64,000 bases of DNA from positions 160,001 through 224,000 of the forward strand of contig OZ242326.1 in assembly GCA_965208325.1 (NCBI GenBank), given 5' to 3'. This DNA is from Candidatus Poribacteria bacterium. GTDB taxonomy: Bacteria; Poribacteria; WGA-4E; PCPOR2b. Shown here piece by piece: positions 3,443 to 23,673 of the stretch (within the stretch, counting starts at the first letter, position 1; the number at the start of each line of letters is the position of its first letter). Made by a program: the position numbers and the translations under genes. Below the pieces are notes generated by a model. That model had not been told where the DNA came from, ran no database searches, and saw nothing but the letters and a program-made list of their open reading frames with translations.

Positions 3443-3823
3443 TCACTGTAACTTGTACCGGTTCGTCTCGGGTTGCCAGTCTTGAATTAACCTTGTCTCC
3501 AATTCTAGCGTGTCCGTTTCTCCTGCTGTGGATACCGCCGAAAACTCGACGATATCGCGAAACATGTGAAGTTGCCGCCGAAGTTTTGGATTGTCTTCGT
3601 CGGAAAGATGCTGCAGCAGGCACCTGCGAACGCACGTAGTTGATTGACCGACGTAAAGGCGTTCCGGCGCATCCTCGGTGCAGGTCGGCAGCCACAACGC
3701 GTATAGACCGCATCTATCCTTCGGCAGTTGCAACACCTCAGTGCGTGTAAATGGCCGACGCTAGTTCTCTACCCGGTACTTCACAGAGAATGGGTTGGGG
3801 TAGTCGTGTGGTGTATTGGACAT
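3443..3823 (-). pseudogene. Small GIY-YIG nuclease, probably inactivated
   Basis: GLYALW...LYVGQS...LLQH...ELE...QPETN; upstream ATG at 3823 is in frame but interrupted by TAG at 3761-3763. Confidence 0.6.
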
Positions 3824-4106
3824 GGGGTGTCAAATAGGGTGCCTCAAATACCGAACAGCGATTGTTGCAACCGCTAAGCTAATATGTATAATTTTTGCTG
3901 ATTTTTATACATATAATATGTGATATGTATAAAACGTATACATATTGATGAGAGAAAACGAGTCTTTTGGAAAAACGCGGATTCTTTAAGGCGGCGCTAC
4001 GTTAGAAAATTGAGTTGTTCCCTGTCGTCCATCGCGGTGCGGATGTTACCCCATTCCGTAACGAGGTTATTGAAGATAACCGCGTTCTCCGAATCGCCCG
4101 GAAGGC

Positions 4107-16277: not shown

Positions 16278-17330
16278 TCACTCCACGATCTCGAAGTCAA
16301 GAACTCTAAACTCCACTTTCGTGTGGGGAGAATCAAATCCGAAGCGCGTAGTCAGTTTTTGAACACTCTCATCAACCTTACTAGTTACGCGCTTTGCCAA
16401 CCCAGCAGGTATCCCGCGGCGATACTGCACAACATTCACATCAATTGGATCGCCATGTGTATCATAGAAAATCACGAAACAGTATACATTCCTGACCTTT
16501 TCACGTAATCGATTCCGCAAAGAAAAGGCGTATTCACCACTTTGAAGTGCTGAGTATGTCCAAGTGAGTTTACCACCTGTCACACCCTCTACGCTTCGAC
16601 CGCCGAGATCTGCGAGTATTGAGCGTTTCGATTGAGTCTGTTTCGCCCTCGACAACGGTTTCGTGGCACCTACCTGCACAACAAGCGCCCTGAGATAGTT
16701 TGACGGGATGGCGAAATTAAGATTCTGTCCACGCCGAAAGGTTGCTACCGACACCCCAATCACCTTTCCCCTGCTGTTCAAAACAGGTCCGCCGCTGCTG
16801 CCCGGTGATATTGGAGCCGTGAGTTGAAGTAATTTGTCCGCTCCAACTCTTCGGACGCTGCTGATTATGCCCTGGGAAAACGTGCCTTCTAGACCATGCG
16901 GGTTGCCCACCGCGTAAACTGTCTCTCCCACCTGAACGGCATCGCTGTCACCGAGGGAAATTGATTTCGTGCCCAACGCCGAGACTCTCAATATAACCAA
17001 GTCTCGTTTAGCGTCAATCGCAGTGATGCCTTTGATGTCGTGTTTAGTCTGCTGACCGACGAGTTTAGCATAGCCTCTTGCTGCATCTTCGACGACATGG
17101 AGGTTAGTTGCGATTTGGTTCGGTCGTACGAAGAATCCGCTGCCCAATCCGACCGGCTGACCGTTAGCATCCTCCATAACCAAGAGCACTGTTGAACCGA
17201 AGGCGTTTTGGGCAATTTGTTGGGCAGTCTGCGCATTTGCTGTAGGTAGTAGGGCGAGCAGTGGCATCGCTAACCCCAATATCAGACACAAGACGCGTTT
17301 AAATTGCAGCATTGTATTCTCATGTTTCAT
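16278..17330 (-). CDS. Secreted trypsin-like (S1C-type) protease with C-terminal beta-sandwich
   Basis: TNLHV/DLVIL/SPGSSGGP motifs; signal peptide; paralog of 13386-15287. Confidence 0.85.
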   Translation of the reverse strand: MKHENTMLQFKRVLCLILGLAMPLLALLPTANAQTAQQIAQNAFGSTVLLVMEDANGQPVGLGSGFFVRPNQIATNLHVVEDAARGYAKLVGQQTKHDIKGITAIDAKRDLVILRVSALGTKSISLGDSDAVQVGETVYAVGNPHGLEGTFSQGIISSVRRVGADKLLQLTAPISPGSSGGPVLNSRGKVIGVSVATFRRGQNLNFAIPSNYLRALVVQVGATKPLSRAKQTQSKRSILADLGGRSVEGVTGGKLTWTYSALQSGEYAFSLRNRLREKVRNVYCFVIFYDTHGDPIDVNVVQYRRGIPAGLAKRVTSKVDESVQKLTTRFGFDSPHTKVEFRVLDFEIVE

Positions 17331-17470
17331 GGATGTATCCTCGCACTGTTGAACTTAACTGTGTCAAAGTTGAGTACTGAAAATTTAAAAGTAAGTATTG
17401 AGTCAAGGATGTGACAGATGCTCATTTATTTATTTATACTATTTGTCGAATGTTGACCGAATGAAACTAC

Positions 17471-17550
17471 CCAACCCCCTCTAGCTCCCCCTTGGCAAGG
17501 GGGAGAATGCAATGTGATGTCCTTTAACCGCTGCCTTGCCAAGAGGGAGA
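17471..17550. repeat. CCCCCTT-GGC-AAGGGGG REP-like palindromes
   Basis: ctcccccttggcaagggggag plus a degenerate second copy; related ccctccttaccaaggaggg near 45560-45580. Confidence 0.6.
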
Positions 17551-17590
17551 AACAACACGTGTGCATCTACGCTTAACTACCGCAAAATAC

Positions 17591-17623
17591 AAAAAAAGCC
17601 CCGTTTGACGACGAGGCTTTGAG
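17591..17623 (-). terminator. Rho-independent terminator after rpmA
   Basis: aaagcctcgt-cgtcaa-acggggcttt followed by a U tract on the minus strand. Confidence 0.75.
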
Positions 17624-17651
17624 TTTGGACCTATCCGATTGAAATACGAGG

Positions 17652-17918
17652 TTAGAAATCTGGGCGATCTGGGTAGACGCTGACCTTTCTGCGGTATTTG
17701 TCCTTCCGCTCGAACCAGACGTAGCCGTCAATCTTTGAGAAGAGCGTATAGTCGCTCCCAAGCCCGACGTTCGTGCCCGGATGAAGGTGCGTCCCACGCT
17801 GCCGAACGAGGATGCATCCTGCTGTCACGTGGTTTCCAGCGAATCGCTTCACGCCAAGTCGTTTGCCGCAGCTATCCCGCCCATTACTTGTACTTCCGCC
17901 GCCTTTTTTATGCGCCAT
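17652..17918 (-). CDS. rpmA: 50S ribosomal protein L27
   Basis: [16 protein letters not shown]...RLGVK...RQRGT. Confidence 0.98.
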
Positions 17919-18261
17919 TTTCTGCTGCCTCCTCGGGGCTATGTTCTTGTTGAATTTCAGTGATTCGTAATCGAGTCAATCTCTGCCGGTGTCCGAGCTT
18001 ACGTTTGTAGCCTTTTCGTCTCTTTGATTTGAAAACAACAATCTTCTTCGCTTTTCCCTGCTCAACAACCTCTCCAATTACGGCGGCTTTTTCCAGATAA
18101 GGCTCCCCAACCTGCAGATCGCCTTCGCCGTCGCCAATCGCTAATACTTCCGGGAACGTAATAATTTCGCCTACGGGAACTTCAACCTTTTCAACATCAA
18201 TCAGTGTCCCCACTTCAACGCGATGCTGTTTTCCACCGGCGGCAAATACAGCGTACATCAC
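17908..18261 (-). CDS. rplU: 50S ribosomal protein L21
   Basis: MYAVF..GGKQHRV...GHRQ. Confidence 0.97.
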
Positions 18262-18332
18262 TTTCTCCTTTAAAACGAACAGTTATGAATGCGAGCCTAC
18301 ATTATCGGAAATACCGGTAGGCACGATCAAAA

Positions 18333-18362
18333 AGTATACCAAACCACAACTTCTTCTGTCAA
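18333..18362 (-). promoter_or_regulatory. sigma70 promoter for rplU-rpmA
   Basis: TTGACA-N18-TATACT with extended TG. Confidence 0.6.
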
Positions 18363-18365
18363 TAC

Positions 18366-19925
18366 TTAATCTACATAGATTTCACGATTTGTGTCTTGGG
18401 CGAATATCCGATAGTCTTCAAGGTGCATGTCGGGATCTCCCTTAAACCGAATGGTCAGTTTCATTGATTCTTCAAGTTGGCGAACCTTGCCGGCTTTCTC
18501 ATTGAGAAGATGTGACACGATCATCTCGTTCGCCACGATTTCCAACCTTCTTTTTCGTGATTTCTGATGGGCTTTTTTAACGGTTCGGAGTAAGCCGATG
18601 GTAACCGTGTCCACCGAAAACACAGTGCCGTGTCCTTCGCAGTAGGGGCACGGCTCGGTGAGCAGCGTTGGCAGACTTGGTTTGGTTCTCTGCCGGGTCA
18701 TTTCGACGAGGCCGATTTCAGAAAAGTGGAGGATATTCGTTCGGGCGCGGTCCTTTTTCAATGCCTGCTGCAACAGCTTGTACACCATCTTTCGGTGTTC
18801 GGACTGGTCCATATCAATAAAATCGATAACGATAATCCCGCCAATATCTCTCAATCGGATTTGCCGAACCACCTCCTCAACGGCTTCAAGGTTTGCGCTC
18901 AGAATGGTATCATCCGGATCGCCTTTGCCGACGAATTTTCCCGTATTGACATCAACGGAAAACATCGCCTCCGTTTTTTGGATGACGATATGTCCGCCGC
19001 ATTTTAGCCAGATTTTCTCGGTTAATGCCTTCTTGAGCTCTTTTTCAATGCCGTAAGATTCAAAGATAGGGCTGGGTTTGTCGTAGAGTTTGACGCGTGA
19101 TCGAAGTTCCGGTAGTGCGGTGGATAGGTAATTGAGGGTTTCTCGGTATTTTTCTTTGGAATCAATGAAGATTTGGCTGACCTCGTTCGTCAAATAGTCA
19201 CGGATCATTCGAGCGGTAAAACCGAGATCCTGATGCACCAAGTGGGGCGCGGACATTTTTTCGGACCGTTCGCAGATTCCCTTCCATTGATTAATCAAGT
19301 ATCGAATTTCCGTCGCAAGTTCCTCTTCCGAAGCCCCTTCGGCCGCTGTGCGAATAATAAATCCACCTTCAACATCGGAACGCAGCGATTGCGCGATGTC
19401 TTTGAGGCGCTGCCGCTCTTCCGCGGATTCAATCCGCCGTGAAACGCCGATGCTTGATGAAGTGGATAAGTAGACAATGAATCTGCCCGGCAGGGTAACA
19501 CAGGCGGTGACACGCGGCCCTTTTGTTCCAATAGGTTCTTTTACGACTTGGACGAGGATTTCTTGGTTCTTGCGAAGCAGATTGCTTATCGAATAAAAAC
19601 TCCCCCTTCCGCCTCTTGGCGAATCTTTAGCGTTTGCGGCAAGACTCTCCTTCGTCGTATCCTTTTCTATGTCCTCTGCCTCGAAATCGTAATGAATATC
19701 CGAGGCATGGAGGAAGGCATGCCGATCCAATCCGATATCGACGAAGGCAATTTGCATACCGGGGAGTACGTTTTCAACGCGCCCCTTATAGACATTGCCG
19801 AGAGACTGCTCATCATCCTTGCGTTCAATTTCAATCTCGCTAAGAACACGATCTTCTACGATAGCGCATCTGGACTCATATTCATCGTCAGAGATTAAAA
19901 TCTCTTTTTGCATTGTCGCCTCCAT
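18366..19925 (-). CDS. rng: Ribonuclease G (Rne/Rng family)
   Basis: GNVYKGRV S1 domain, DVNTG, IDFIDM, EMTRQR and CPYC motifs. Confidence 0.93.
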   Translation of the reverse strand: MEATMQKEILISDDEYESRCAIVEDRVLSEIEIERKDDEQSLGNVYKGRVENVLPGMQIAFVDIGLDRHAFLHASDIHYDFEAEDIEKDTTKESLAANAKDSPRGGRGSFYSISNLLRKNQEILVQVVKEPIGTKGPRVTACVTLPGRFIVYLSTSSSIGVSRRIESAEERQRLKDIAQSLRSDVEGGFIIRTAAEGASEEELATEIRYLINQWKGICERSEKMSAPHLVHQDLGFTARMIRDYLTNEVSQIFIDSKEKYRETLNYLSTALPELRSRVKLYDKPSPIFESYGIEKELKKALTEKIWLKCGGHIVIQKTEAMFSVDVNTGKFVGKGDPDDTILSANLEAVEEVVRQIRLRDIGGIIVIDFIDMDQSEHRKMVYKLLQQALKKDRARTNILHFSEIGLVEMTRQRTKPSLPTLLTEPCPYCEGHGTVFSVDTVTIGLLRTVKKAHQKSRKRRLEIVANEMIVSHLLNEKAGKVRQLEESMKLTIRFKGDPDMHLEDYRIFAQDTNREIYVD

Positions 19926-20272
19926 TCTTAAGTCGCTAATGCGTTGTCAGTTATCTCTCGCGGCGCTGCCGTGACAACTGCTACTGTGCACGACGGCGCA
20001 AAAGCGGGTGAAGCTACCGGCTTTTATGTTCAATTTGACAATGCACTAGGAGGTTTTAAAGTAACAAAATTATGGAGGCAACGGGCCTAACATCAAGTTT
20101 AGAATTTGTTCAAGAATTATCTTCCTATTAAAGATATATGAACGCACACGTCGGCACTGGTTTTCGATGTGGAGCGGAATCTTCGATTCAGGCACATTCT
20201 TTGCCTTGGATTACCATGCGCGACCATGTGCTGTAAAATTCTCTTCATACAATCATGTCTTTTTATCTTAAG

Positions 20273-20471
20273 TCAATATCCCGCTTGTATAACTCCCGAT
20301 CTGACACTGCTTCTGAATGTCAGAAAACCGAACGTCGGTAAGGGTTGAGGATGTATTTGCTAAACCAACTTGTTCAAACACTAATCAAATACATCGCACA
20401 TTCAGAATCCGTACCTGGATTCAATGTTGTAAAACCCATGTGTCGGGATTTTGATACAACGGTGACATTGA
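20273..20471 (-). ncRNA. Candidate structured RNA of unknown family
   Basis: At least eight complementary helix pairs in 200 nt; G-U wobbles favour the minus strand. Confidence 0.45.
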
Positions 20472-20537
20472 TTTATTTCATTGAATGAAAGGTTGTCGGC
20501 CGCTTTTATCTGCGTGACAACACTCGCTCAAAACCCA

Positions 20538-22112
20538 TTAAGTTCCTTTGCGCGGCGTCATTGTGATTACCGGAATGATTAACTCGCTAGGTGAAATCCC
20601 GCCGTGCTGGAAGCCGCCGCGAAACTGTCGCGTATATTCATGATACTGATTTGGATAGACAAAATAGTAATCTTCCTTCGTTATAATATAGTTTTTACTT
20701 GAACCCTCAGCGGGTAACCTATATTCATTCGGATGCGCGATGTGTATAGCTTGATCTCTATTGCACCCGAGGTTCGTACCGACTTTGAAACGAAGGCTTG
20801 TGGACGTTTCGCGATTTCCAAGCGCTTTAGTAGGTCTATTGCAAAGAACGGAACCGTGGTCAGAGGTTAGGACGACGGTGGCGTTTCGGGTTGCAATAAT
20901 CTTCAAGACCTCAAAGAGCGCGGAATGGGCGAACCATGATTTTGCCAGTGAACGAAAGGCAGATTCATCCGGTGCTATTTGCTGAAGTACATTTGACTGT
21001 GAACGTTGATGGGTTAATATATCAATGAAGTTAACGACCAGAGCAGATAAACTGATTTGGTCGAAAGACGAAACTTGACGTAAAAACTCGTTGCCTCCCT
21101 TGGCGTCAAATATCTTGAAATACCTAATTCCTGGTTTAAGGTTCAGCCCGGCTCTTTGAAGCTTTTGTTGAAGGAGCTGTTTTTCATACCGATTCGTACT
21201 GGTTTCGTCTTCTGAGTTTTCCTGCCAATATTGCGGGAATTTCTTTGCAATCTCTTGAGGAAATAAACCGCTAAATAGTGCATTGCGAGAGTAGAGCGTT
21301 GCACTAGGCAAGATTGAGAAGTAAAAATCCCGATTGGTATAAAAATAGGGCCGAATCAGCGGCTCAATCGCCATCCAATGGTCGAGCCTGAGACAATCAA
21401 CAACAATAAAATAGGTGGGTCGTTTTTCGCGTAGATGTGGGATGACAAAATTATCTAACACATCCACAGATAAAATTGGCGAGTTTTCCCCTTTTAACCA
21501 GCGGGTATAGTCTCGCGAAACATAGTCCGAAAATGAAGCATTACACTCCTTTTTTAGCTCTACGTGAGTTTCTTCAAGGCCTGTTTGTCCCAATTGATCG
21601 AATTCGAGATCCCATTCGACCAATTTCAGATAAATTTCAATCCACTTGCGCCAATCCGGGGCGGTCTCTTTTGTGTGTCGAATCTGATCGAAATCGTGCG
21701 TGTAGTTGCGGGGTACCTGTCCTTCTGCAATCTTTGTCTGGTCTAGAACACGTTTCAAGGTAAGAGCGACCTGCGCTGCCCCGATTGGTTTCACCAGAAA
21801 ATCGCTAATCCGTTTCCCCAACGCCTCATTAACTACCTGATCATCATGGCATTGTGTTAGCATTACCACGGGCAAGGTCGGGTCAATCGCGCGGATGCGG
21901 TCCAATGCCGCTAAGCCGTCCTGCCCAGGCATCATCTGGTCAAGTAAAACCACATCATACCGCTGATTATTGAGCAGTGAAATTGCATCGTCCCCGTTGG
22001 ACACAGAGGTGACATCATAAGACTTTTCATTCAGAAAAAGGATGTGGGGTTTCAGGGCATCAATTTCATCATCAACCCATAAAATTTTGTGAGCGATATT
22101 TTGCATTAACAA
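20538..22112 (-). CDS. PorX-like response regulator (receiver plus PglZ phosphodiesterase domain)
   Basis: ILWVDDEI, LLDQMMPG, VDCLRLDHW, ILPSATLYSRNA, TSDHG and FQHGGIS motifs. Confidence 0.85.
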   Translation of the reverse strand: MLMQNIAHKILWVDDEIDALKPHILFLNEKSYDVTSVSNGDDAISLLNNQRYDVVLLDQMMPGQDGLAALDRIRAIDPTLPVVMLTQCHDDQVVNEALGKRISDFLVKPIGAAQVALTLKRVLDQTKIAEGQVPRNYTHDFDQIRHTKETAPDWRKWIEIYLKLVEWDLEFDQLGQTGLEETHVELKKECNASFSDYVSRDYTRWLKGENSPILSVDVLDNFVIPHLREKRPTYFIVVDCLRLDHWMAIEPLIRPYFYTNRDFYFSILPSATLYSRNALFSGLFPQEIAKKFPQYWQENSEDETSTNRYEKQLLQQKLQRAGLNLKPGIRYFKIFDAKGGNEFLRQVSSFDQISLSALVVNFIDILTHQRSQSNVLQQIAPDESAFRSLAKSWFAHSALFEVLKIIATRNATVVLTSDHGSVLCNRPTKALGNRETSTSLRFKVGTNLGCNRDQAIHIAHPNEYRLPAEGSSKNYIITKEDYYFVYPNQYHEYTRQFRGGFQHGGISPSELIIPVITMTPRKGT

Positions 22113-22158
22113 CTCACCCCTTTTTCCCTTTTATCCTTCAAATTTAGGGAAGCCTCAA

Positions 22159-23673
22159 CTAGATTTCTTCTCGTTTCTCGCCGGATATTGTCCCGATTGG
22201 CAGTACAATTTCGAAGCTTGTCCCATTAGGCCCGGAGTCGACTAACCGGATTTTCCCATGATGGTGTGTCTCGACAATACGTTTGACAAGTGTTAATCCA
22301 AGCCCCCAACCGTGTTTCTTGGTTGTTACACCGGGGTGAAAAATTTTTCGGCGGTCTTTCCGTACAATCCCCTTGCCATTGTCCGTGTATCGAATAATGA
22401 TACGACGGTTCTTCTCATCAAATCTCGGATCGATTTCGATTAAACCGTTCGGTTTGTCGAGGGCATCGAGCGAATTGCGAATCAGGTTCTCAAAAACCCA
22501 TTGCATAAGTTCTGCATTGGCGAAGACGTATGGAAGTTCACCAGCAGTGACCCTGATGTCAACCGATTTGTTGCGATTGGGCAACCGTTTTTGATAGTAG
22601 GAAACGACATCGCCAATCACTTCGTTGACGTTGACTTCCGTTTTTTGCGGTTCCGATCCAATCGTCCCAAAGCGTGCCGTGATTTTCTGCAACCGGACGA
22701 TATCGTTATGCACATTTTCATAAATGCCGCTAACCGTAGCGTCGTCCGCTTCACGATTTCGAGTGGTCAACAACTCCAACCAGCCCATCAAAGAGGATAT
22801 TGGCGTTCCCAGTTGGTGTGCGGTTTCCTTGGCGAGACCGCCCCAGAGCGCCGCCTGTTCGCTGAACCTTATGCGCCGATAGCTCAGATACCCTACACCC
22901 AAGAAAGTTGCAAACACAGTTATCAATACAACCGGCATAATCATAATGCCAAGATAACGCGTCGCTTCGTAATAAAAAAAACCCTTACGCAAGTCAGGTG
23001 TGGTCTGCAGCGGCACCTCGCGTCCCAACACTTTGGAGCTCTGCACCAATTTTTCAGCCCGTGCCAACTGTTCCGGTGTAGCATGCTTGGCAGTAACTAA
23101 GTCGCCGCCCCAGATTCGCCACATCTGCGGTTTGCGGTTCAAATCCGTGACGACAAAGGGAACCTGTTCTATCGCTGTTACATCGGCGTCGCCATGAAAA
23201 AAATAGGCAGAAAGTTCGCGGTTTTCTAAGCTGTATTGAATGGACACCGGTCCATTCTTCTTCTCCATCCGGTCCAATGCGTCTTTGAGTTTAACTTGCT
23301 CGACAGGGGATAACGCAATTGAAGGCTCGGTGTTGACTTTTAGGTCGATTGCTTCATCAACGCCCTTGGCAATGACAACTTCCCCGTTATCTGCATCTGT
23401 AATGATGAACGATAGACGGCTTTCCGTCAATAACTGCTTAACTATTTGCGTCAATCCGTCTTGAAGTTCTCTGTCCTTCACCTCGGGTAATGTCGCCGCA
23501 AGGTGTGCCAACGGTCCGACCTGTTCCTCCAACGCTCGATCCAGCTGGAGAATCTGTCTGGTATAATACACGAAGGCGAGCGACAGAATGAGTAGCCCAA
23601 CGATAAAGTACGCTAACAGGAATCTCGTCGTGGCGTAACCAGTCGGCACAATCCTTTTGCGCTTGAACAGCAT
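22159..23673 (-). CDS. Membrane sensor histidine kinase
   Basis: Two TM helices; AKETAHQLGTPISSL H-box; ENLIRNSLDA, DNGKGI and GWGLGL boxes. Confidence 0.92.
   Translation of the reverse strand: MLFKRKRIVPTGYATTRFLLAYFIVGLLILSLAFVYYTRQILQLDRALEEQVGPLAHLAATLPEVKDRELQDGLTQIVKQLLTESRLSFIITDADNGEVVIAKGVDEAIDLKVNTEPSIALSPVEQVKLKDALDRMEKKNGPVSIQYSLENRELSAYFFHGDADVTAIEQVPFVVTDLNRKPQMWRIWGGDLVTAKHATPEQLARAEKLVQSSKVLGREVPLQTTPDLRKGFFYYEATRYLGIMIMPVVLITVFATFLGVGYLSYRRIRFSEQAALWGGLAKETAHQLGTPISSLMGWLELLTTRNREADDATVSGIYENVHNDIVRLQKITARFGTIGSEPQKTEVNVNEVIGDVVSYYQKRLPNRNKSVDIRVTAGELPYVFANAELMQWVFENLIRNSLDALDKPNGLIEIDPRFDEKNRRIIIRYTDNGKGIVRKDRRKIFHPGVTTKKHGWGLGLTLVKRIVETHHHGKIRLVDSGPNGTSFEIVLPIGTISGEKREEI

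Follow-up and report, generated by a model that had tools for sequence, protein, structure and literature searches.

A closed, branched RNA fold confined to one genus lies upstream of the only RNase E/G gene of a Candidatus Poribacteria genome and points to a putative Shine-Dalgarno-locking leader

What is a strongly folding, apparently noncoding stretch of 199 nt doing between a signaling gene and the gene of an RNA-decay enzyme? This question is raised by a locus in the genome of a Candidatus Poribacteria bacterium (4.7 Mb, one contig), whose closest named database records are Poribacteria metagenome-assembled genomes. All coordinates refer to the window, the whole 64-kb stretch of DNA that was analyzed; in it, two minus-strand genes, one for a response regulator with a PglZ domain and the other, rng, for an RNase of the E/G family, are separated by a gap of 612 nt that holds the element in question at positions 20273-20471. 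The original prediction saw in this element an undescribed noncoding RNA or switch, possibly controlling the RNase. We find that the observation itself is sound and that the interpretation is partly supported: the element is undescribed, present in a single copy and devoid of a conserved open reading frame (ORF), but it is neither a conserved family nor, as far as can be predicted, a switch. The answer that we tentatively favor is that the element is a genus-specific, closed and branched domain of a structured RNA running from the regulator gene to rng, the conserved core of which is a helix that would lock the Shine-Dalgarno (SD) sequence of rng. The three features on which the argument turns are the following.

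20273 to 20471, minus strand: the element, a closed, branched 199-nt fold found in one genus only (minimum free energy, MFE, -67 kcal/mol; z -5.09), single copy, with homologs in three congeners.
18366 to 19913, minus strand: rng, RNase E/G-family endoribonuclease, 515 amino acids from the corrected start codon (Pfam RNase_E_G, 1.4e-104; thioredoxin-like and S1 domains).
20538 to 22112, minus strand, upstream of rng: response regulator with a PglZ domain, a PorX-like architecture (Pfam Response_reg, 4e-24; PglZ, 9.5e-17).

The RNA read from the minus strand, which is the strand of both flanking genes, reaches an MFE of -67.0 kcal/mol, whereas its shuffled versions average -45.5 (sd 4.2); this corresponds to a z-score of -5.09, with none of 200 shuffles as good. 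The RNA of the plus strand reaches -58.2 kcal/mol and a z-score of only -3.82, so the gene strand is the better folder. In the MFE structure, a closing stem of 17 + 6 bp surrounds a three-way arrangement of hairpins. All the helices listed in the original prediction are present in the sequence (given here as plus-strand letters): the closing pairs tcaatatc 20273/gacattga 20464-20471, ttgtat 20285/atacaa 20454 and tcccga 20294/tcggga 20443; the inner hairpins tctgaca 20300/tgtcaga 20318 and accga/tcggt 20327-20339, together with gggtt 20342/aaccc 20433; and, enclosed by the latter, gatgtatttg 20350/caaatacatc 20386 and acatt-gaatcc/ggattc-aatgt 20398-20427. We compared the element with a noisy background scan of 304 window-strands (the first 15.2 kb of the 64 kb, 12 shuffles each), the two top candidates of which scored z -2.90 and -4.08 when re-scored with 200 shuffles. 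Because of these values the element is an outlier in folding by a modest margin only, neither a wide one nor a unique one. The stronger of the two candidates is an AT-rich stretch (3801-4000, minus strand) with long palindromes of UAUACAUAU-type words (z -4.08, 200 shuffles).

The element matches the 4.7-Mb genome once, and a covariance model built from it (R1) finds one full copy in each of the four genomes sampled from the genus, so we rejected a miniature inverted-repeat transposable element (MITE) or a repeat of the repetitive extragenic palindrome (REP) type. A cmscan of positions 19800-20700 against all 4227 Rfam families returned, at E<=10, only two chance matches to eukaryotic snoRNAs (14.5 and 14.6 bits); the RNase E leader families of Rfam, rne5 and rne-II, were not among them. 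Four loci of other genera likewise gave no Rfam match within the spacer, so this Poribacteria leader matches no described family. Downstream of rng at one locus of another genus (g4; L179:3744-3849, minus strand), there is a sub-threshold match to the ylbH leader of Rfam (31.5 bits, gathering score 50, E 0.0023). The literature on noncoding RNA of Poribacteria, the one topic searched for an earlier account of such a leader and judged by titles and the beginnings of abstracts, held nothing relevant. As to coding capacity, mechanical ORFs of 31-73 amino acids do occur in the spacers of three species, so the statement that the element has no ORF does not hold literally; no ORF of at least 30 amino acids is common to the three, however, and a small conserved ORF was rejected for that reason.

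The surroundings of the element are far more constant than the element. A domain search of the whole genome identified rng as its sole gene with PF10150 (RNase E/G). The order regulator, spacer, rng was found at 16 of 16 and 28 of 28 Poribacteria loci (two overlapping sets) and at two further loci of a third family, with spacers of 200-628 nt at the loci examined. This adjacency across three families suggests that a PorX-type two-component system is linked, in function or in transcription, with RNA decay. A histidine kinase gene precedes that of the PglZ response regulator and rplU follows rng; these four and further genes form a co-directional minus-strand run from 16278 to 23673. In what follows, g1 stands for the genus of the element, g5 for its sister genus and g4, g9 and g11 for other genera, while f2 and f3 are families; within the four-genome sample of g1, G000 is the present genome and G001 and G003 are diverged congeners.

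We scanned the spacers of G000, G003, G001 and one f3 locus (L010) for consensus promoters and terminators. None of the four has a terminator-like site on the gene strand, the only such site being in L010, within the coding sequence of rng and on the other strand, and no sigma-70-like site between the two genes is conserved among them. A sigma-70-like TTGATG-16-CATAAT (20096-20069) was considered as the rng promoter and rejected, as it occurs only in G000 and G003, is absent from G001 and the f3 locus, and overlaps the anti-SD motif described next. Just past the stop codon of the regulator gene, folds of the whole spacer contain one more hairpin, which has no U tract and where the terminator scan gave nothing.

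20492 to 20521, minus strand: hairpin GUUGUC-CGC...GCG-GACAAC (23-26 of 30 columns invariant).

What, then, is conserved between the regulator gene and rng? Across genera, the spacers can be aligned at two blocks only, the SD region and a complementary motif upstream of it, and a nhmmer profile built from f3 spacers recognizes just these two blocks in the spacers of g1. At all 17 Poribacteria loci first collected, GGAGG stands 5 nt ahead of the start codon (ATG in 16, GTG in one), and in a second set, which overlaps the first, the arrangement GGAGG, 5 nt, ATG recurs at 28 of 28 loci. The conserved start codon is residue 5 of the rng ORF as it was called before correction (18366-19925), and the in-frame ATG upstream of it in this genome (19925) is replaced by TAG or by CCG/ACG in other genera. 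Because of this conserved GGAGG-ATG and of the non-start codons upstream in other genera, we place the start of rng at 19913-19911 and its SD at 19923-19919; the longest-ORF start at 19925 is probably wrong, and that ATG and the codons after it are probably the SD sequence itself. In addition, many contigs of other organisms match the window at 19876-19933 only, a 58-nt segment that holds the SD, the start and the first rng codons, with at least 88% identity, and diverge on both sides of it, from which the start region of rng appears to be unusually conserved at the nucleotide level among Poribacteria.

19911 to 19925, minus strand: conserved SD-start arrangement, with the sequestered arm AUGGAGGCGAC (19915-19925), the SD GGAGG (19919-19923) and the ATG (19911-19913).
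20072 to 20082, minus strand: anti-SD GUUGCCUCCAU, pairing with 19915-19925 at a predicted probability of 1.0.
20064 to 20138, minus strand: the most conserved block of the spacer, a small hairpin plus the anti-SD (up to 28 of 30 columns invariant).

The anti-SD motif TCGTTGCCTCC is complementary to GGAGGCGAC, and its TGCCTCC is exact at 26 of the 28 loci, with a one-base variant at the other two, in five genera and two families; it recurs at the corresponding place in loci L173-L200 and is missing from two loci of family f2. Here the SD-locking helix would comprise 11 bp (20082-20072 with 19925-19915) and forms a separate domain when the whole spacer is folded. Relative to the ATG, the motif is found at -66 to -78 in g4, g5, g9 and g11 and at -165/-166 in the genus of the element. 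The insert that the helix closes is variable and structured, with a length of about 150 nt in this genus as opposed to about 60 nt in most others. When we folded the segment from the motif to the start in 14 leaders, all five SD bases were paired with the anti-SD at P>=0.97 in 12 of them; the exceptions are L014, where four of the five are paired, and L020, with about 0.57. Covariation is absent from this helix because its SD side never varies, and the argument for it lies in the conservation of a complementary motif within otherwise unalignable sequence. A conserved complementary sequence upstream and its predicted pairing, the two marks of an SD-sequestering leader, are thus both found for 19915-20082. 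In line with this, columns 20064-20123 are the most constrained of the spacer (24-28 of 30 invariant). What looks like the conserved controller of rng therefore lies 190 nt downstream of the element, outside the coordinates of the original prediction. Since the anti-SD must be in the message to act on it, the 5′ end of that message would lie upstream of 20082.

The element itself tells a different story. BLAST of the spacer detected it in three of three congeners (99.5, 78 and 74% identity) and in none of 37 other relatives, and a scan of a genome collection returned only the three congeners already known. With the rng protein we retrieved 111 relatives from metagenomes, of which 80 were kept; among these best 80 of 111 one exceeds 50% identity (L086, 72%) and none belongs to the genus, and blastn of the spacer against the 80 upstream regions matched only the same three congeners. 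The covariance model R1 found nothing credible in 25 other genomes of the family (weak matches, E 0.02-1, in five of the 25, at unrelated places and none at the rng locus). By all these searches the element is not a conserved RNA family and is confined to one genus.

Within the genus, we asked how each helix fares when the MFE fold of this genome is laid on the four-sequence alignment and the cells that can pair are counted.

20459 to 20471, minus strand: 5′ arm of the closing helix, UCAAUGUCACCGU, pairing with 20273-20285.
20273 to 20285, minus strand: 3′ arm of the closing helix, AGCGGGAUAUUGA, on the same basis as the 5′ arm (20459-20471).
20401 to 20424, minus strand: hairpin UUGAAUCC/GGAUUC, kept in all congeners, core pairs invariant in 4 of 4 sequences.
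20327 to 20339, minus strand: hairpin ACCGA/UCGGU, 95% of cells paired; four of five pairs change on one side only, to G-U.
20301 to 20323, minus strand: hairpin CUGACAUU/...GUGUCAG, competitor of the long-range helix, 90% of cells paired; three pairs change to G-U.
20350 to 20395, minus strand: perfect 10-bp hairpin GAUGUAUUUG/CAAAUACAUC, in this species only, within the most variable stretch of the spacer.
20311 to 20407, minus strand: long-range 10-bp helix (20398-20407 with 20311-20320), the "second fold", 90% of cells paired.

The closing helix is paired in 92.6% of cells and 12 of its 17 pairs never vary; the GGG/CCC helix is paired in 94.7% and the GAAUCC hairpin in 86.4%, although the invariance of the latter (20401-20424) provides no covariation evidence for or against pairing. 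In the two hairpins nearest the 3′ end (20327-20339 and 20301-20323), every change is to G-U, which pairs on the minus strand only. The inner closing segment drops to 75% and the long 10 + 6-bp hairpin to 72.5 and 62.5%; these two are species-specific features, and all that the relatives retain in the alignment is the closing helix, the long-range helix and three of the hairpins. Counted over all 70 MFE pairs, the proposal that mismatches become G-U on the minus strand has mild support: G-U combinations outnumber A-C ones in this genome (5 vs 0), in G003 (10 vs 4) and in G001 (11 vs 8).

Is this partial conservation enough to speak of function? A number of observations weigh against the reading that we favor, and they make it quite possible that the fold has no function of its own, being a species-level accident of inverted repeats in a fast-evolving spacer in which short islands are constrained for other reasons; this unselected by-product is the main rival explanation. 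The element diverges at about the neutral rate, with 75.5 and 65.5% identity to the two diverged relatives; the flanking genes, at their fourfold sites, show 67-75 and 61-70% (three-way identity at such sites, 192/317 or 61%). Its center (20344-20403) has 12-16 of 30 columns invariant, neutral or faster, and by this measure no part of the spacer varies more; the same 12-16 columns hold for the region of the perfect 10-bp hairpin at 20350-20395, which this species alone possesses. The z-score falls from -5.09 to an unexceptional -2.72 and -0.25 in the two diverged relatives, and another spacer of the window reaches -4.08. The RNAalifold consensus keeps 40 of the 70 pairs, one of them compensatory, at -29.4 kcal/mol, as compared with roughly -62 for the single sequences. 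When the substitutions of each relative were shuffled among alignment columns, the pairs kept were 52 of 70 in G003 (48.7 expected, p 0.15) and 45 of 70 in G001 (43.7 expected, p 0.39), so that substitutions do not significantly spare pairs in either, and paired and unpaired columns change at similar rates. With only three diverged sequences, these tests of pair conservation have little power either way. As for transcripts, RNA contigs of relatives (mostly 90-95% alike, from two RNA runs) reach 19979 on the rng side and resume at 20800 in the regulator gene, and none of them covers 19980-20799, a gap that has no bearing either way on expression of the element. Finally, if the rng message started at the anti-SD itself, the element would be outside the rng leader.

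Four observations are at odds with a mere accident. The arms of the closing helix have 22-24 of 30 columns invariant, above the neutral level of about 18 expected; the changes in the two hairpins mentioned above are all pair-preserving G-U; two perfect 10-bp complements occur within 199 nt, where by our estimate about 0.02 would be expected per element; and a covarying closed domain appears to occupy the same position in the sister genus. In g5, the whole spacer can be aligned for 13 species (loci L177-L193), and the RNAalifold prediction is a closed domain, about 205 nt long and beginning 27 nt past the regulator stop codon, with three stacked closing segments of 7 + 8 + 6 bp (21 bp) around three hairpins. 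It is 91.9% paired, and 12 of its pairs have changed on both sides versus 5.2 +/- 1.8 in shuffles (0 of 500 as good) and 3-6 in slid controls, counts that are somewhat inflated, as the structure was derived from the alignment in which they were made, and that help our reading less than their size suggests. A covariance model of this domain (R2), run on 16 loci, matches only a held-out g5 locus, L200, at E 2.5e-20, where the closing stems are kept, the interior is mostly replaced and a GC-rich insertion of about 70 nt lies further downstream; it finds nothing in g1. Conversely, the matches of R1 in g5 are weak and at other loci. The g5 domain is thus not detectably homologous to the element and the parallel is one of position only, a further point against our reading. 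What the predictions do indicate is that, at one and the same position and with no homology detected, each of two genera has a closed, branched domain of about 200 nt.

The long-range helix raises a different possibility, namely that the element is a two-state switch, riboswitch-like or triggered by a protein, in which this helix alternates with two hairpins to control rng, the signal being perhaps the nucleotide product of the PglZ regulator. The helix (ttctgaatgt 20311/acattcagaa 20398) is present as predicted and truly excludes two local hairpins; eight of its ten pairs are kept in each diverged relative, two have changed on both sides in a compensatory manner, and of the four genomes only G001 departs, by one base, from the 7-nt core UUCUGAA/UUCAGAA shared by G000, G002 and G003. 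Against this, 62 of 500 shuffles did as well, which is not significant, and the fold forced to hold the helix is 5.4 kcal/mol worse than the MFE here and 7.3 and 4.4 worse in the relatives, with an ensemble probability of about zero for its pairs in three species. The second fold is therefore predicted to be unpopulated at equilibrium, which lends no support to a two-state switch of the ligand type. The competing helices also have neither a terminator nor an SD adjoining them, the SD being 350 nt away with a conserved anti-SD of its own. Nor is there a conserved unpaired core of the kind that binds ligands, as the center of the element is the part that varies most (12-16 of 30 columns); and the occurrence in three of three congeners and none of 37 others differs from that of known riboswitch classes, whose cores are conserved across taxa. 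We thus regard a switch as very improbable, and the corresponding part of the original prediction is not supported; the long-range helix could play a part in folding kinetics or in a protein-bound state.

Could the element be an independent gene for a small RNA, 6S-like or trans-acting, that merely sits between the two others? Its 199 nt, single copy and long helix joining the ends are reminiscent of stable small RNAs and of 6S RNA (RF00013) in particular, and the place of 6S RNA is formally vacant in this genome: the RF00013 model matches nothing in the region (E<=10) or anywhere in the genome (E<=1), so it fails to recognize any 6S RNA that this lineage may possess. The identity was nevertheless rejected, since no Rfam model, those of 6S included, matches the element at E<=10, the MFE fold is multi-branched and not a rod with a central bubble, what would be the core is the least conserved part, and the element is absent outside one genus when 6S RNA is far more widely conserved. 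No promoter-like or terminator-like site flanks it either, and we consider a small RNA gene of any kind improbable.

Much the same holds for a feature acting at the level of DNA, either a decayed insertion bearing terminal inverted repeats or clustered sites for protein binding. Indeed, the best-conserved parts of the element are its two terminal arms, which form an imperfect inverted repeat, and TCAATG-like words recur: two (20484-20489, 20466-20471) read in one sense, a third (20421-20426) is reversed, and a fourth, also reversed (20273-20278), is the one-base variant TATTGA. The sequence is nonetheless single in this genome and in each congener, apart from a partial R1 match in G001 (E 0.27, model positions 48-91), shows no evident target-site duplication and stands at the same place in all four genomes of the genus, and the G-U changes favor pairing of RNA from one strand; a relic of this sort is unlikely, to about the same degree as an independent small RNA.

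We therefore return to the element as a genus-specific domain of a structured RNA with the SD-locking helix as its conserved core, which we prefer, if cautiously, because of the z-score on the gene strand, the conserved closing helix and hairpins with their G-U changes, the retention of the long-range helix, the lack of a gene-strand terminator and of a conserved promoter, the fixed synteny, the anti-SD, the g5 domain, the status of rng as the sole RNase E/G gene and the precedent of E. coli. Directly supported are the fold with its strand bias, an outer helix and three hairpins that are partly conserved, the family-wide complementarity of anti-SD and SD and the covarying analogue in g5. On this basis, a long structured minus-strand RNA would extend between the PglZ regulator gene and rng, and the element would be transcribed and joined to the rng message, as the distal part of the rng leader or as the spacer of a regulator-rng co-transcript. 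The pairing of the anti-SD (20072-20082) with the SD and start region (19915-19925) would be the conserved working core, and translation of the RNase would require this helix to be opened or cut. The branched domain upstream, with its closing helix of about 23 bp, would by analogy most likely serve as a platform for docking or processing. It might be bound or cleaved by the RNase itself, in a feedback such as that of hp3/hp2 in the E. coli rne leader, or else by a nuclease specific for double strands, which would part the two cistrons; in both cases it could set the stability of the rng message. A bolder version, which goes well beyond these data and which we think rather unlikely, is that Poribacteria control their sole RNase E/G through an independently evolved two-module feedback leader, in which a fast-evolving branched domain recruits or is cut by the nuclease and an invariant helix locks the ribosome-binding site and start until processing. 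Were it true, such a leader would couple a PorX-type signaling operon to global RNA decay, and the 199-nt element and the 205-nt domain of g5 would be versions of the same module behind the regulator gene.

How does this locus compare with known systems? To our knowledge, leader-mediated feedback on RNase E has been worked out in depth for E. coli and its relatives only, and little is settled about how other phyla control their main decay nuclease. The Poribacteria locus provides a testable case in an uncultivated phylum. Leaders that sequester the SD comprise translational operators, RNA thermometers and leaders activated by processing. Like them, the Poribacteria spacer has an upstream anti-SD predicted to pair with the SD and start over 9-11 bp, closing a variable, structured insert; the likeness applies to 19915-20082 and not to the 199-nt element, and covariation is not possible there, with the SD side invariant. 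Stalks cut by RNase III are found in the rnc and pnp leaders and at the early sites of phage T7. As in these, a helix of about 20 bp would join the ends of a structured insert between co-directional genes, and the g5 analogue has 21 bp in three segments; unlike them, the helix of the element is bulged and not known to fit the rules of RNase III, and the resemblance is one of predicted folds only. The nearest counterpart is the rne gene of E. coli, which is feedback-controlled through hp2 and the branched hp3, both binding RNase E, in a leader whose structure is conserved more than its sequence (PMC13692253). Like the rne 5′ untranslated region, the Poribacteria spacer would place a long multi-hairpin RNA with a branched stem-loop, better kept in secondary structure than in sequence, before a gene of the RNase E/G family, and in both cases the enzyme is a key nuclease of RNA decay, in Poribacteria the only family member of the genome. 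The two leaders differ in that they share no likeness in sequence or covariance model (no Rfam match at E<=10) and belong to different phyla, that the Poribacteria enzyme is short and of the RNase G type (515 amino acids), and that the Poribacteria spacer, known here from sequence alone, adds a conserved SD-sequestering helix and has an element restricted to one genus. Taken alone, the 199-nt element is a weak candidate and its value lies mainly in pointing to the rng leader, whose start codon could be corrected in the course of this analysis. A structured leader before an RNase E/G gene is a known kind of thing; new here are the uncultivated phylum, the putative SD-locking helix, the lineage-specific branched domains and the fixed synteny with the PglZ regulator.

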